Shown: positions 33,001 through 39,000 of the stretch, piece by piece
How the letters are laid out: each line of letters starts with the position of its first letter
How positions within the stretch are numbered: the stretch's first letter is position 1
NCBI RefSeq assembly: GCF_054482595.1
Contig: NZ_JBTHVH010000004.1
Strand: one strand, 5' to 3'
Length of the DNA stretch: 64,000 nt
DNA from: a plasmid
Made by a program: the position numbers

Positions 33001-36000
33001 ATGGTGGGCCGGTTTCACTGAATGAGGTTAGTGGAAGCGGCAGTATGTTCGGAGGCACAGCTGATCTGTTCGTAAAGGTTAATGATTTATGTGTGGCCGT
33101 CTTTCTGGACAGGGATCGCAGCATTTCAGAGAAGTTAACCTTTGACCATCTTCATCCTTCCGAAAGAGTTGCCGCATTGCGTATCGATCTTCCTGATATT
33201 GAATATGAAATCAGTCAGGTGCAGCTCGGGCGACGTAAAACAACATACAGTGAGTGCATTGAAAGCCTGATCATTGATGAGACCAGTTCCCGGGAATGGC
33301 TATATCATCCATTAATGCATGAACTTGAATCTGAACCTCTTCAGGAGTATCGGGGACGGGAGCCTTCAGAGGAAGGGCCTCTTCTTCAGCGCCTTGCTGA
33401 CTGTAAGATGAAATTGCCTGATATCCTTCCGGGCAGTCATAACGCGCTAGTCAGGTTACAGCAGGATACGATTGTATGTCTGTGTCGGTTAACGGTTCGG
33501 GCTTATGACATCGCTCAGACCGATGAATTTCCTTTGTTCCTTCGCTATTTCAGGTTGCACTGCCTGGAAAACAGCGAACATGTCAGTTACGAAAGACTGA
33601 TCTGCTGGCAGGAAATGATTTCAAAAACCCAGGAAGGCCAGTCCTTGACACAAAACGAACTTGAATATCTTCATGAGATTGTCCGCATCGCCTTTTACAA
33701 TCACCGGCTTAACAATGTCAGTATTTCAGATGTTAAAAACCATGACACTGGAAAGAAGAGCGGCAGGGTAGAGTCACAAAATTATTCACTTTTATAAATA
33801 ACTTGGGCTTTGCGCATTAAACCCTTGCCGCAGGCGGTGTACCGCATATCCGGCACAGACAGTCAGTTTTTTCTGGCAGCTTAAATTTGACACTGCTTAA
33901 TATAGTGATTCATTAAACAGGTTCAGTATGCTGCCAGAACGTTTTAGTCGTAATGGGCGTCCGTTAGTTTTCAACTAACTGAACGACGACCAGCCTGCCG
34001 CCTTCCTCCTTTGACAGAACAAACTGAGCGTTATTCGTCAGTTCAATTTTTTCCCCAATGGCAATCTGTCGTTTATCCGGTAATGACATAAGCCCATTTA
34101 TGCCTTCATTTACTAACCACCACTGATCGTTATGGAAAACAAAATACCCAACTCGTTTCCTTTGTGCATCGGTTGTGCGCTCATTTGGCGCAATGAGGCG
34201 ATTCACATGCCACGCATAGATTGACTGCCCGCTCCACACCATCAACCGGTGGTCGTCAGGACGATAACTGCCTTCCTTTCGGGATGAATATAAATTTAGA
34301 ACCGGTAATTTACCCTTGTATGGCGTACCGCAGTAGGGACAAACCGGCTTTGTCTTACCTGAGAAAACGTACCATTTCTGTTCACACGCCTTGTTCTGGC
34401 AGGGCTGTATCAGATCGACTGTTTTAACCAGGGCACTTTCCCACTCATCGGCGGTCGGGCGTTTATTGGCATCGTGTAAGCCATCAATAAAGGCGCGTTC
34501 AAACAAAGGCGTCAAATAAGGGCCCATGATGGTGTAAGGAATTTTCTCCGGGTCAGCCCAGGGCAGTGAAAAGGAGGATAGCTGACTGACTTTGACTGCA
34601 TTGCTTTTGTCTGTCGGATGTTCAATGAAGAGTGCCTTCTCACCCATAGATAAGGTCTCATCACGTACTTCATCCGACATGTCATGTATTTTTCCGCCAC
34701 GTAGCGGATGACGGAAGAACAGATACATGTAGATAAGCACCGACAGCGCATGACGGTCAGTAGAAATGCTTGGCAATACGCGGTTCGGATCCTCTTTGGA
34801 AAGATGGCTGGTTTTCACCACTTCCGGAGCGATAAAATCCGGGGTGCCCACGACGTCGGGAGGATACTTTCCAGGGACAACCAGGCCGTCTACGTCAATG
34901 ATGCAGGCATGTCCCATTTCTGGATCGATAAGCACGTTTTTATAGCTTAGATCGCTGTGACAGAGACCTGCCGCATGCATCCTTCTGACGGCTCTTGTTA
35001 GCAGCAGACAGACCTTGAGATAGGTAAGCGTATTGCCTCGTTCACGTGGGTCGAGAAATTTATTCTGGTTGCTGGCGCTGGCAAACCATTTGCCTTCCTT
35101 TTCACGGCCTTTTATGCCAAGAAAATCATCGTTTTTAGAGCCGTATTTAAAGAAAAAGTAGCTTTTGTAGGTTGGAACCACGATGCCGATTTTATCCCCA
35201 TGCTCAACAACGTGGGTCGGCCAGCAAAACAGGTCCTTCCAGTATTCACCTCCGGACTGGCCAAAAATGTTTTGCCTGTAGCGTCCGGTGATCATATCAA
35301 TCCGATCCCGGGCCTGCTCGTTCTGCGGTTTATGATAAAAAGCGACGACGTATGATTTATCAGGCGAGAAGTAAACATCCTTCATCGAGCCCGAACCAAT
35401 TACCTCGTCAACATACTGGACTGTTTCGCCGTCCTTTGTTTTGCACGTAACAATATTTGCCATATTGATCACCGAAGAAGCGTATCCCTTACCACAACAC
35501 CGCAATAGTGCGGTCATCGTGGTTCCCTGTGGAGAAAAAGTTAAGCCAGTCGCCTAACCTCTCAGGCGCAATACTGGCGTCTGTAAGGACAGGGATGAGC
35601 TCATCAAGGAGACGGGTCCATTTTTCGTCACTGCGAAGCCCGTTATCTGTCTCAAACAGAGGGTCTGATACGCCATCTGTCATGAGGATCAAGTGAGATA
35701 CATCATTCCATTTACCCACGCTGATGCGGCCGCTAAACGAGGGGTCTGCGATAATGCTCTGGTCAAGAAAGCGGGTTTGTCCTGCGTATTCTCCGCTATC
35801 GGGATTTCCCAGTATCCTGACTTTACCGGAAGGGCTGTATGCACCTATCGCACCATCACCAAGCCAGAATGCAGCCGCAAACAGCTCGTTATCAGTTCGT
35901 AGCGCTACAGTTGCCAGTAGGGTTGTTGAATAGGATTTCACAGGTTGTTCTGCACAAATGGCTTCGTTCTGGATACTGTTGACCGCGAGCGTAGCTGCCT

Positions 36001-39000
36001 GTTTAAAATGATGAAGCATGGCGTTTATGGTTGCCTGCTGATCGCTCCCTTCCCACGCCGTGATGTGCTGCTTTAGATGGACGCCTTTCAAACCACTGAG
36101 CTGATTGAAAAGGTAATCGCCAGCCGTTTGGACTGCAATCCGGGAGCCTTCCCGGGAATTTACCGCACTACCGGCCCCGTCTGCGACCAGCATGACAGAC
36201 CATCCTGTTTCCTGGCAGTGGTTGATATAGAAGTCGTCATCTCTGAAGCTCCCGGCATGCTCATGAGATCGTCCCCGGCGACTGGCGGCAGCAATACGTA
36301 TGTCACCCCTGACCAGGCCAGCAGCGTCCAGATGGGACTTAGGGTAGGAAGCGTCTGCTGGTGGCTCTACCACCTTCCACAGGCTTCTCGGATCGGGATT
36401 GACTATAAAAAGCTGTTTTGTTTCGCATTCGTCGTGCGAAGCGCATGACCAGAGTACTGAAAGCTCTATATCGCCGCTTTCGGTGGGTGTACCTGTCAGC
36501 AACTTATGCTCTTTGTCAAAGGTCAGGCCAATGTTCCTGGGAAAGACAACGTCCCTGACAGTAGCCTGCTGGCCCTCATCCAGAACTATAGCAACCGGCG
36601 AAGAGAAACGTTCGCCTGCGCGGGCGTTGGGAATAACTATTTTAGCTCTCGGGGGAACGGCAGGTGGCACAGCTAATCCGGCCCGCTGCTGGCCTGTCGG
36701 TATCTGCCCGGGTTTTAATACCAGGGAAGACAGGTTTTCGTCTTCCCTCTGTGCTGGTTTATCAAATTCGTAATAAGGCATCAGCTTCCAGAACGGAGGA
36801 TGAGGTTCATTTTCTGGCAGGGGTTGCAGTAATGGTGTATCGGTAGCGTCAATGCCCGGGTTATCAGCATCACTTACGACCGTTTGTTGCTGATCGGAAA
36901 GGCTGGATGCTGACGAGGGGGCGATCTCTGCGTCGTTATAACCTTCGCTAACCCGCGCAGATAAACCCTGTGCAAGGCTCTCAATCCGCTCTTTAAGCCG
37001 CATAATCTCTTCAGTAAGGGAAGGGTCGTGCGATAGAAGAAAAAGCCGCTCACCTTCTACAGGGTGGCCCAGCTCAGACAGCACTAAGCGGATAATCTTC
37101 TCTTCAAGTAAAACATTTTGCGACATCAACCTCTCCCTCTGTTTACGTCGAAGTTAGTGTTTCCGCCATCATTGCTGAATGACAGACCTGTTTCACACCA
37201 CGGGCAGATCACGTCATCCGGGCCGTCAATGCACAGCAATTTTCCGCATGAGCACAGGGCAAACGCACTGGCATTACCGCAGTGAGGGCAACCCGGTACG
37301 CCATGCAGTTCGCTGGTGTTTACCTGCAAACCGGTAGCGGTGGCATCTGACCATGCAAAATAGTCTTCATCGATGGGATAGCATCCGGCAATATTAAAGC
37401 TGTTCAGGTTCAGGCTGAAATCGAGCCCGGAAATCCTTGCTGGTGGCCGTTCATACTTCATCAGATACGGACGACGGGTCTTGCTGCAACGGCCGGTAAG
37501 CGTAACGCAGTTTTCGTCGTACGCTTTTACTGGCTCGTCCTTGGCCAGCCGGACTATGTATTCAGTCTGGCTGAGCTCAGGTTGTTTGTCGTCTCCGACG
37601 CTGCGGCTGTGCGCCGTAACCGAGGCTGTGATCCATTTGATGAAGCGGGTAAAGTCCCCTTCCTGAGACTCGGTGAACAGCATGACATTCTCTGTCAGTT
37701 GCCGCAGGGTATTCAGGTCCGCTGACGGCCCCAGGCCAACGGCAATGAGATTCACTTTACTCGCGTAGTGATCCTTCCAGCGCTTCACTTCTGCGGTTGT
37801 GTCGTCAGTCGGACGTCCGTCGGTAAGGAGATACACGACGGGTTTCCAGTCGCCTTTAGCCTCATGAGTGGTTTTTCTGACCTGGGTATCAATTTGTACG
37901 GTCAGCTCACGCAATGCGGCCCCAAGGCTCGTACCGCCGCCAACGGGAAGGCGGGGAGGGTAGAACGAGGCAATTTCGTGAAGAGGTACAATCGTACGGG
38001 CTACACCGGCAAATGCGATTACCGAAACCCAGGCTGTTTCAAGTGCGTGTGGATCCTTTCTTAAATCTCCGATGATCATTTGCAGACCATCAGTCATTTT
38101 TTTCAGGTTTTCACCAATCATGGACTCTGAACAGTCCAGGACAAAAAACACGGGAAGGCGTCTCATAATTTTCCTCGTACGGCTGGTACGGCCAGCAGAA
38201 AACGTTGCTGTACAGAAAGGTGCTGCCCGGAAAGCAGCACCTTTCTGTCTGTCAGAGCACCAGCTGGATTTCTGGTGGAGGAGGGGGAAGGGTATCAGTT
38301 CCGTTATTGATCCCCGCGCTTGTGCTGCCGGAAGACACGCTGGCCGATACCCATTTAAAGAAACCTGCAAACGCGGTTGAATCTAGCGTCTCCAGAGACA
38401 CAACCTTATCGGTGAGCTGTTTTAAGTGCTCATGGCCTGCTTTAGGACCAACGGCGCAGGCAATGATGGATCCGAATCCCCGGCCGCGAATCGCTTTTAC
38501 CGCTTCACCGTACGCCAGGGCATCAGAAGGGGTTCCATCAGTCATCAGGAATACCAGAGGACGCCAGTCTCCTTTTGTATCACCATCTGAGCGACGTACA
38601 TCCCGTTCAACACACTGCATCAGACATTCAAGGGCAGCACCGGTGAACGTCCCGCCTGCGCTTGGCACAACGATGTCAGAAAACTGGAAGTCTTCCAGCG
38701 GCGTGAGAGGAATGAACTCACGCGCCTCATTGTCATAGGTGATAATGGAGATATGAACGCTTTCGAGGGCGTAGGGATCCTGGCGAAGAGCGCTAAGCAT
38801 CGCCTGAATTCCAACGTTAACGGAATGGATGGACTCACCGCGCATCGAGCCGGATGTGTCGATAACAAGGTAAACAGGCAGGCGGCGCATCACATGTAAT
38901 TCCTCAGGTGCGAGACAAACGAATCTGATTCTGAAGGCTCACCAATTGCCCTGAGTTTCCAGCCTGTAGCCTCGCGTATCAGCTCGGCAAAAACCATGGA

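Follow-up and report, generated by a model that had tools for sequence, protein, structure and literature searches.

We analysed a plasmid-borne window of 64,000 nucleotides (nt) (NCBI RefSeq assembly GCF_054482595.1, contig NZ_JBTHVH010000004.1; all positions are those of the window) that includes a ter locus with genes for a Ser/Thr kinase, a PP2C phosphatase and a vWA protein, the three components of the module known as TerY-P. A sequence-only reading of this DNA had placed three contiguous minus-strand genes at 33964-38166, and open reading frames (ORFs) are found at exactly those positions. These are the distal three genes of a six-gene unit with the order terY1-terX-terY2-terY3-PP2C-kinase, in which the following genes and domains are distinguished (lengths in amino acids, aa; PGAP, Prokaryotic Genome Annotation Pipeline):

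33964-35463, minus strand: Ser/Thr kinase gene, 499 aa from the PGAP start
34414-35463, minus strand: kinase catalytic domain, aa ~1-350, delineated by fold alignment and conserved residues
34321-34410, minus strand: four-Cys zinc ribbon of the kinase (C355, C360, C375, C378), delineated by the conserved Cys residues
33967-34311, minus strand: cryptic FHA-fold domain of the kinase, aa ~385-499, assigned from the fold only
35489-37126, minus strand: PP2C phosphatase gene, 545 aa
35540-36277, minus strand: PP2C_2 catalytic domain, Pfam match, aa 285-530 of a 546-aa ORF
37126-38166, minus strand: terY3 (vWA and TerY_C domains), 346 aa
38252-38890, minus strand: terY2, short vWA protein with a C-terminal LPPPPPExxxVL tail
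38890-39531, minus strand: terX, TerD family
39554-40192, minus strand: terY1, short vWA protein with a C-terminal LPPPPPExxxVL tail, heading the gene unit

The kinase ORF extends upstream of the PGAP start, up to 35517. The name terY3 comes from plasmid pKL53-L, on which the genes were designated terW-Y1-X-Y2-Y3 (PMC11003894). Many Escherichia coli plasmids of ~250 kb in RefSeq, including pMCR_W5-6, pTB-nb4 and pKL53-L, match the triad region with 100% identity at the DNA level, and the plasmid type is IncHI2, bearing mcr-1. Because of this identity, and because the gene order recurs in all 54 loci of the survey described below, the triad genes are real rather than chance ORFs; given the match to E. 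coli mcr-1/IncHI2-type plasmids, the triad is therefore an archetypal one that already has the name TerY-P.

The distal gene had been read as encoding a eukaryotic-like Ser/Thr kinase, and the Pfam and fold comparisons agree with this assignment. The Pfam Pkinase match is partial (residues 169-287, E 1e-9), and an AlphaFold2 (AF2) model built on 62 diverse homologs (pLDDT, the per-residue confidence, 95.4; pTM, the overall fold confidence, 0.94) superposes in Foldseek, over residues ~1-350, on the kinase domains of CaMKII, ASK1, NIK and PAK (~335-350 columns for CaMKII, ASK1 and NIK). The catalytic loop reads H169-S-D171-L-S-Y-K-N176 and is followed by D190-V-D192-G, where D190 aligns with the Asp of the DFG motif, and by A212-P-E214. 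Conservation of the catalytic residues among homologs, which the sequence-only reading had named in advance as a test of its proposal, was assessed in 17 close homologs, 93 representatives at 32-59% identity and 80 species-level loci: H169, D171, N176, D190, D192, the APE motif, D236, R251 and R335 are invariant in the 80 species, leaving the proposal standing, and the same residues are kept in 76-92 of the 93 representatives. All catalytic and Mg-binding residues of the kinase are retained. At position 170, the four commonest residues listed (S, G, A and T) account for 84 of the 93 representatives, and Arg is not listed; the kinase is therefore of the non-RD type. The activation segment is short, with Thr207 at the P+1 position as the sole conserved phospho-acceptor.

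The glycine loop of the kinase reads G23-S-G25-S-M-K28, and strand β3 (V-V-A41-F-Y43) contains no Lys. K28 is invariant in the 80 species; in the set of 93 homologs, 67 have K28 without a Lys at position 41, 12 have K41 ('VVKxY') with G or A at position 28, and none has both. The Lys that anchors ATP seems to have shifted from β3 to the place of the third Gly in GxGxxG, as in WNK kinases. These kinases have a relocated catalytic Lys, and the glycine loop of WNK1 is GRGSFK. The triad kinase likewise lacks the β3 Lys and has a Lys at the third Gly (GSGSMK); it has no specific sequence relationship to the WNK kinases, so that the likeness is presumably convergent. Across phyla that include Bacteroidota, Myxococcota and Erysipelotrichia, as well as in Helicobacteraceae, the kinase is unusually well conserved, with 60-88% identity over 499 aa, which suggests that it is under strong constraint and that the entire block has spread horizontally. 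In two metagenome-assembled genomes of Helicobacteraceae (L055:6488-8375 and L058), the kinase is detected as two adjacent matches, and the L055 match spans 1888 nt versus ~1497; this could reflect an insertion, a frameshift or a partial duplication.

Beyond the catalytic domain, the kinase contains two further domains. All four Cys residues of the zinc ribbon are invariant in the 80 species and are kept in 84-90 of the 93 representatives, and the ribbon has a weak profile match to zinc ribbons of the Cox5B/eS31 type. The C-terminus has an FHA β-sandwich fold, in which W418, H419, W448, N452 and R490 are conserved. H419 is found in 80, and N452 in 81, of the 93 representatives, and the two residues are present in 79 of 81 and in 81 of 81 aligned sequences, respectively (the 80 loci and the window's own); they are probably the signature His and Asn of FHA domains. 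The assignment rests on the modelled fold: the Pfam FHA profile (PF00498) matches 0 of 38 kinase family members, and a profile search of PDB retrieves no FHA chain at E≤10. Phosphopeptide binding by this domain is uncertain because the canonical phosphothreonine (pThr)-contacting Arg and Ser seem unconserved. The FHA fold and the relocated Lys go unmentioned in PMC11090510, PMC10542128 and PMC4978471 and in the full-text searches, a scope that lies outside the founding 2012 paper. The Rad53/Chk2 FHA kinases and the bacterial circuits of Ser/Thr kinase, PP2C and FHA proteins (mycobacterial PknB/PstP/GarA/FhaA) share the fold and are analogous, not orthologous, to the triad, in which, unlike in those systems, the FHA domain is C-terminal, follows a zinc ribbon and is undetectable by sequence profiles, and conservation of the canonical pThr-binding Arg and Ser is not evident.

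The product name of this protein in RefSeq/PGAP and UniRef is 'helix-hairpin-helix domain-containing protein', a legacy of COG4248, and some genomes name it 'lipopolysaccharide kinase InaA family protein'. We rejected the helix-hairpin-helix reading, as no such family in Pfam matches at E≤10 and the chain consists of kinase, zinc ribbon and FHA domains; likewise, an OB-fold reading of the C-terminus was rejected, the zinc ribbon and the FHA fold being there instead. The RefSeq name is thus misleading, and it has spread to thousands of genomes.

The middle gene had been read as a PP2C phosphatase with a Pro/Ser-rich N-terminus, and both parts of this description hold. Pfam PP2C_2 matches over its full length (E 1.8e-46), and the N-terminal half of the protein is rich in Ser and Pro. 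The layout comprises an N-terminal helical segment, a Ser/Pro-rich linker, a β-rich segment ending in a conserved NPDPxSLW motif and the PP2C domain, and the acidic and metal-binding motifs R284-G-R, D297/D298, D316-G-A-G-S, D424-G, D484-G and D537-D-R-T are kept in at least 97% of 69 homologs. TerY3, described beforehand as a vWA protein ending in a Cys-rich module, matches both corresponding Pfam families, VWA at residues 6-160 (E 3e-13) and TerY_C at residues 217-346, over the full length of the profile (1-129 of 129, E 4.5e-53). Its metal ion-dependent adhesion site (MIDAS; D11-x-S13-x-S15, T79, D116) and the TerY_C residues C227, C293, C296, C307, C312, C321 and C324 are kept in at least 95% of 59 homologs. 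The PP2C acidic motifs and the TerY3 MIDAS and Cys cluster thus retain the residues needed for function. The short TerY vWA proteins (TerY1, TerY2 and the vWA proteins of distant triads) all have the conserved terminus S-x(6-10)-LPPPPPxφxφV-COOH, the distant examples being L003:419-1099, L004:7646-8287, L005:866-1504 and L006:6981-7628, and TerY3 has the TerY_C module in place of the LPPPPP tail. This tail could be a docking peptide for another product of the operon.

The linkage of these genes was surveyed with one genome per species, keeping the best 80 loci, in which the kinases are 60-88% identical to that of the window; the loci come from Gamma-, Beta-, Alpha- and Epsilonproteobacteria, Bacteroidota, Myxococcota and Erysipelotrichia. 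They were annotated with the window's own proteins, and linkage was counted in the 54 loci with at least 6.5 kb of upstream sequence. PP2C lies directly upstream of the kinase in 54 of the 54 loci, and a TerY vWA gene directly upstream of PP2C in 53, with TerY_C present in the PP2C-adjacent vWA protein in 48. At least two TerY genes occur in the block in 53/54 loci, a TerD-family gene belongs to the same co-oriented block in 48/54, and the exact order TerY-TerD-TerY-TerY_C-PP2C-kinase recurs in 29/54. Distant kinases, 34-49% identical to that of the window, still belong to vWA-PP2C-kinase triads, some of which adjoin TerC/DUF4236 or multiple TerD genes, and one branch of which adjoins a WD40 protein. 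By these counts and the distant triads, what is conserved as a unit is the complete terY operon, the invariant core of which is the triad. In the WD40-linked branch (metagenomic contigs L002 and L003), the kinase has the canonical β3 Lys (for example, P0225), and the vWA-PP2C-kinase triad is followed by a 427-aa WD40 β-propeller, with no Ter gene visible on these short contigs. This arrangement might represent a separate variant with four genes.

According to the annotation of the identical plasmids, the six-gene unit is neighboured by terW, by a biosynthetic module of five to six genes (DUF4236, HpcH-like, StiP, phosphoribosyltransferase (PRTase) and ATP-grasp) and by a divergent terZABCDEF cluster. 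Within the unit, the gaps between successive genes are 22, -1, 85, -1 and 25 nt. A strong hairpin-plus-T terminator follows terW at 40643-40620, and a scan of the minus strand detects no terminator-like site between 40620 and 33824. The candidate signals at the two ends of the unit are:

40459-40438, minus strand: perfect palindrome ATGTATGA-N6-TCATACAT, just upstream of the promoter-like site of terY1
40423-40394, minus strand: candidate σ70-like site upstream of terY1, from a consensus scan
33805-33824, minus strand: first terminator-like hairpin past the kinase, weak, candidate end of the unit

Because the genes lie on the same strand, are spaced as given above and are uninterrupted by terminator-like sites from 40620 to 33824, the sequence is consistent with a single transcript of all six genes, which is plausible, and the region 40394-40459 is, at the level of consensus, a candidate control region of the terY operon. 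In Pectobacterium, RNA-seq data were handled with the 'terY operon' as a separate unit and with a putative TerW site ahead of terY1 (PMC7843439). The palindrome upstream of terY1 is a possible TerW operator. An operator common to the terY1 and terZ promoters was considered and rejected: the 9-mer ATGATTTTC, the terZ-side copy of which lies at 47625-47633, is non-specific (4 matches versus 1.5 expected), and a 13-mer of the putative shared TerW site matches on the terZ side only.

The TerY-P triad of Ter systems was defined computationally by Anantharaman, Iyer & Aravind in 2012 (Mol Biosyst 8:3142; as cited in PMC11090510 and PMC4978471). The sequence-only reading had assigned the window's genes to this predicted triad, and the assignment is borne out by the TerY_C match and by the near-universal synteny with TerY and TerD genes. 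Shared with the 2012 definition are a TerY-like MIDAS vWA protein with TerY_C, an adjacent PP2C, an adjacent Hanks-type Ser/Thr kinase with a C-terminal zinc ribbon, the Ter neighborhood with the same TerD/TerC/biosynthetic linkage, and the plasmid family; there is no essential difference. The locus is effectively the type example of the Ter-system TerY-P, that is, an already known module.

The name TerY-P is also used for an anti-phage system. According to Gao et al. 2020 (reported via PMC7699616), a stand-alone TerY-P protects E. coli against T7-like phages; a variant from Pseudomonas aeruginosa protects against Autographiviridae without cell death, is missed by PADLOC and DefenseFinder and co-occurs with Druantia III (PMC10889362). 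The kinase of the Gao-type system has an OB fold in place of the zinc ribbon (PMC11090510). We recovered the tested locus of E. coli G3/10 from its first ~400 nt in the Stokar-Avihail supplement; it lies at NZ_CP060075 59618-62877, encodes a 277-aa vWA protein, a 239-aa phosphatase and a 561-aa kinase, and adjoins a type I restriction-modification system. As a positive control, its proteins match the PADLOC models TerY (PDLC02224), PP2C (PDLC02222) and STK_OB (PDLC02223) with 572, 358 and 878 bits, which excludes the possibility that the library lacks TerY-P models, and the window's triad proteins have no match to these models at E≤10. A scan of the three window proteins against NCBIfam detects no TerY-P family, and pairwise BLASTP against the G3/10 proteins yields non-significant E values of 0.28, 0.20 and 0.048, the last spanning the catalytic loop only.

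The two systems named TerY-P thus share the three-gene logic of vWA protein, PP2C-like phosphatase and Ser/Thr kinase, the gene order and, presumably, a phospho-switch, with no common ancestry detectable at the sequence level. In contrast to the stand-alone Gao/PADLOC cassette, with its 561-aa OB-fold kinase and 239-aa phosphatase, the window triad has a 499-aa kinase with zinc ribbon and FHA domains and a PP2C of 545 aa, and is embedded in the six-gene terY unit of a ter locus. The TerY-P embedded in Type II/III-A CoCoNuT (McrBC-like) systems likewise combines vWA, PP2C and a kinase with a C-terminal zinc ribbon and is seen as an add-on regulatory or defensive cassette (PMC11090510), but is linked to McrBC-type GTPase, helicase and HEPN genes rather than to Ter genes. 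Without significant similarity to the tested system, the anti-phage evidence is not transferable by homology to the window triad, and the literature searched contains no phage-protection experiments on the Ter-linked clade. The earlier statement that the function is experimentally open therefore holds for the Ter-linked triad, since the tested G3/10 system belongs to different protein families, and needs qualification for the name as such, under which a defense against phages has been described (PMC7699616; PMC10889362).

With respect to tellurite resistance, the triad is accessory or regulatory and is dispensable. Among 5426 complete E. coli genomes, terZABCDE is present in 1013 and the triad in 337; about two thirds of the E. 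coli genomes with ter genes, O157:H7 among them, lack the terY operon. In the island of O157:H7, terW, the biosynthetic module and terZABCDE are still present, and IS66 elements have taken the place of the entire terY operon. Moreover, a terW-terZABCDEΔF clone has a minimal inhibitory concentration of tellurite of 5 mM, the same as the wild-type pKL53-L host (PMC11003894). It is the excess of terZABCDE over the triad, the state of O157:H7 and the unchanged resistance of the ΔF clone that identify the triad as accessory. In the chromosome of O157:H7 F8952 (L007, locus 5878-10699), IS66-family elements adjoin terW at the point where the terY operon would start, and terF is truncated, so that this strain represents a natural deletion of the whole terY1-kinase unit. 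The ter-focused experimental papers examined mention neither the kinase nor the phosphatase.

We consider it reasonably likely that the triad is a Ter-associated TerY-P phosphorylation switch, forming the distal half of the six-gene terY operon in the ter locus of an IncHI2-type mcr-1 plasmid. In such a switch, the vWA/TerY_C and TerD-type proteins would be the metal- or ligand-sensing and scaffolding parts, on which the kinase would dock via its zinc ribbon and FHA domain. The kinase would phosphorylate Ser/Thr residues on at least one partner, either TerY/TerX/TerD-class proteins or the Ser/Thr-rich linker of PP2C itself, and PP2C would reset the phosphorylation state. As a reversible switch, the pair would then tune or license the Ter stress or phage-inhibition response and would not confer tellurite resistance itself.

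Several points weigh against this proposal. The linkage figures describe the clade of at least 60% identity (the best 80 loci), not the whole kinase family. The placement of K28 in the active site derives from covariation and from the homology of its position rather than from geometry; Pfam does not detect the FHA domain, and its candidate pThr-contacting Arg and Ser positions (~399 and 416, mapped by eye) are not conserved. Co-transcription is argued from spacing and consensus scans only, and the 85-nt gap preceding terY3 could hold an internal promoter.

A classical phage-inhibition phenotype, reportedly described for IncHI2 plasmids by Whelan et al. in 1995, would fit an alternative explanation under which the triad is a self-contained anti-phage system equivalent to the Gao TerY-P and lies near ter genes only through clustering of defense genes. 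The window encodes the same three domain classes as the validated system, which acts on T7-like phages in E. coli (PMC7699616) and on Autographiviridae in P. aeruginosa (PMC10889362), and some distant triads (L002/L003, L005) have no Ter gene on their short contigs. However, the window proteins miss, at E≤10, the PADLOC models that the G3/10 proteins match with 358-878 bits, BLASTP is non-significant for all three protein pairs, and the architectures differ both in the kinase (499 aa with zinc ribbon and FHA versus 561 aa with OB) and in the phosphatase (545 versus 239 aa). Furthermore, the triad never stands alone in the clade of at least 60% identity, where 53/54 loci contain two or more TerY genes and 48/54 a gene of the TerD family, and we regard equivalence of the triad to the Gao system as unlikely. 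An explanation of another kind, that the kinase is a pseudokinase or scaffold without catalytic activity and that the module signals through binding alone, takes its support from the missing canonical β3 (VAIK) Lys, from the Pfam Pkinase match, which covers the C-lobe core only, and from a PGAP name that is not that of a kinase. Yet the HxD...N loop, both Asp residues of D-x-D-G, the APE motif, D236, R251 and R335 are invariant in the 80 species, and an invariant Lys at the WNK position covaries perfectly with the loss of the β3 Lys; this mutual exclusion of K28 and K41 is the pattern that a relocated catalytic Lys predicts and thus argues against a pseudokinase. The adjacent PP2C (54/54) would also make little sense without a kinase activity to oppose, and this is the least likely of the rival explanations, one to which we give very little credence.

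The terW, terY and terX genes of R478 are said to protect E. coli from the toxicity of the ter cluster (work attributed to Whelan et al. in 1997, J Bacteriol 179:63). The terY operon, triad included, might accordingly be mainly a safety catch that shields the host from terZ-F toxicity rather than a sensor of external stress. A reversible kinase/phosphatase pair would suit holding an effector off, and constructs with more of the terY region survive better than minimal ones (PMC11003894). Nevertheless, O157:H7 and about two thirds of the ter-positive E. coli stably keep terZABCDE without the terY operon, and the mapped protective region excluded terY3, PP2C and the kinase, which makes such a role for the triad improbable.

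Returning to the Ter-associated phosphorylation switch, its parts can be combined in a more specific proposal, which we put forward tentatively and with more doubt than confidence: a widespread class of non-RD Hanks kinases that have no β3 Lys and possess a glycine-loop Lys, a zinc ribbon and a cryptic FHA domain would, together with PP2C, constitute a checkpoint resembling Rad53/Chk2, gating the Ter response, including IncHI2 phage inhibition, through phosphorylation of metal-binding proteins of the TerY/TerD type.

The rest of the window shows several features outside the terY unit. A cassette of mcr-1 (27987-29612) and pap2 (29660-30406) occupies 27808-30405 without either flanking ISApl1; at the same site, pMCR_W5-6 has both ISApl1 copies, and in pTB-nb4 the site is empty and lies inside an intact hypothetical gene. 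The mcr-1 insertion looks immobilised; the terY operon ends ~3.5 kb away from it. A second vWA cluster, at ~11359-15893 (coordinates mapped from the pTB-nb4 annotation), encodes an ATP-binding (possibly MoxR-like) protein, a DUF3150 protein and a 670-aa vWA protein. Downstream of terF, at ~56801-58370, the annotation of the identical plasmids contains a helix-turn-helix regulator and a HipA-family toxin, a type II toxin-antitoxin pair.

The ter locus, which was tied to phage inhibition decades ago, is widespread on plasmids of clinical importance (IncHI2 with mcr-1) and in pathogens such as Klebsiella, Yersinia, Proteus and Shiga toxin-producing E. coli, and the only enzymes in it that are obviously regulatory are the kinase and PP2C. 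What the present analysis adds is a relocated Lys and a cryptic FHA fold in the kinase, a RefSeq name shown to mislead, a lack of homology to the namesake defense system, counts for the synteny and evidence that tellurite resistance does not need the triad; the category of the module stays unchanged. The analysis also provides precise targets for mutation: K28, D171 and D190/D192 of the kinase catalytic domain, D316 and D484 of PP2C, and H419, N452 and R490 of the FHA domain. If the checkpoint proposal is true, the triad would be a signalling system separate from the validated TerY-P defense, to which it is not homologous, and one that is missed by current defense-finder tools.

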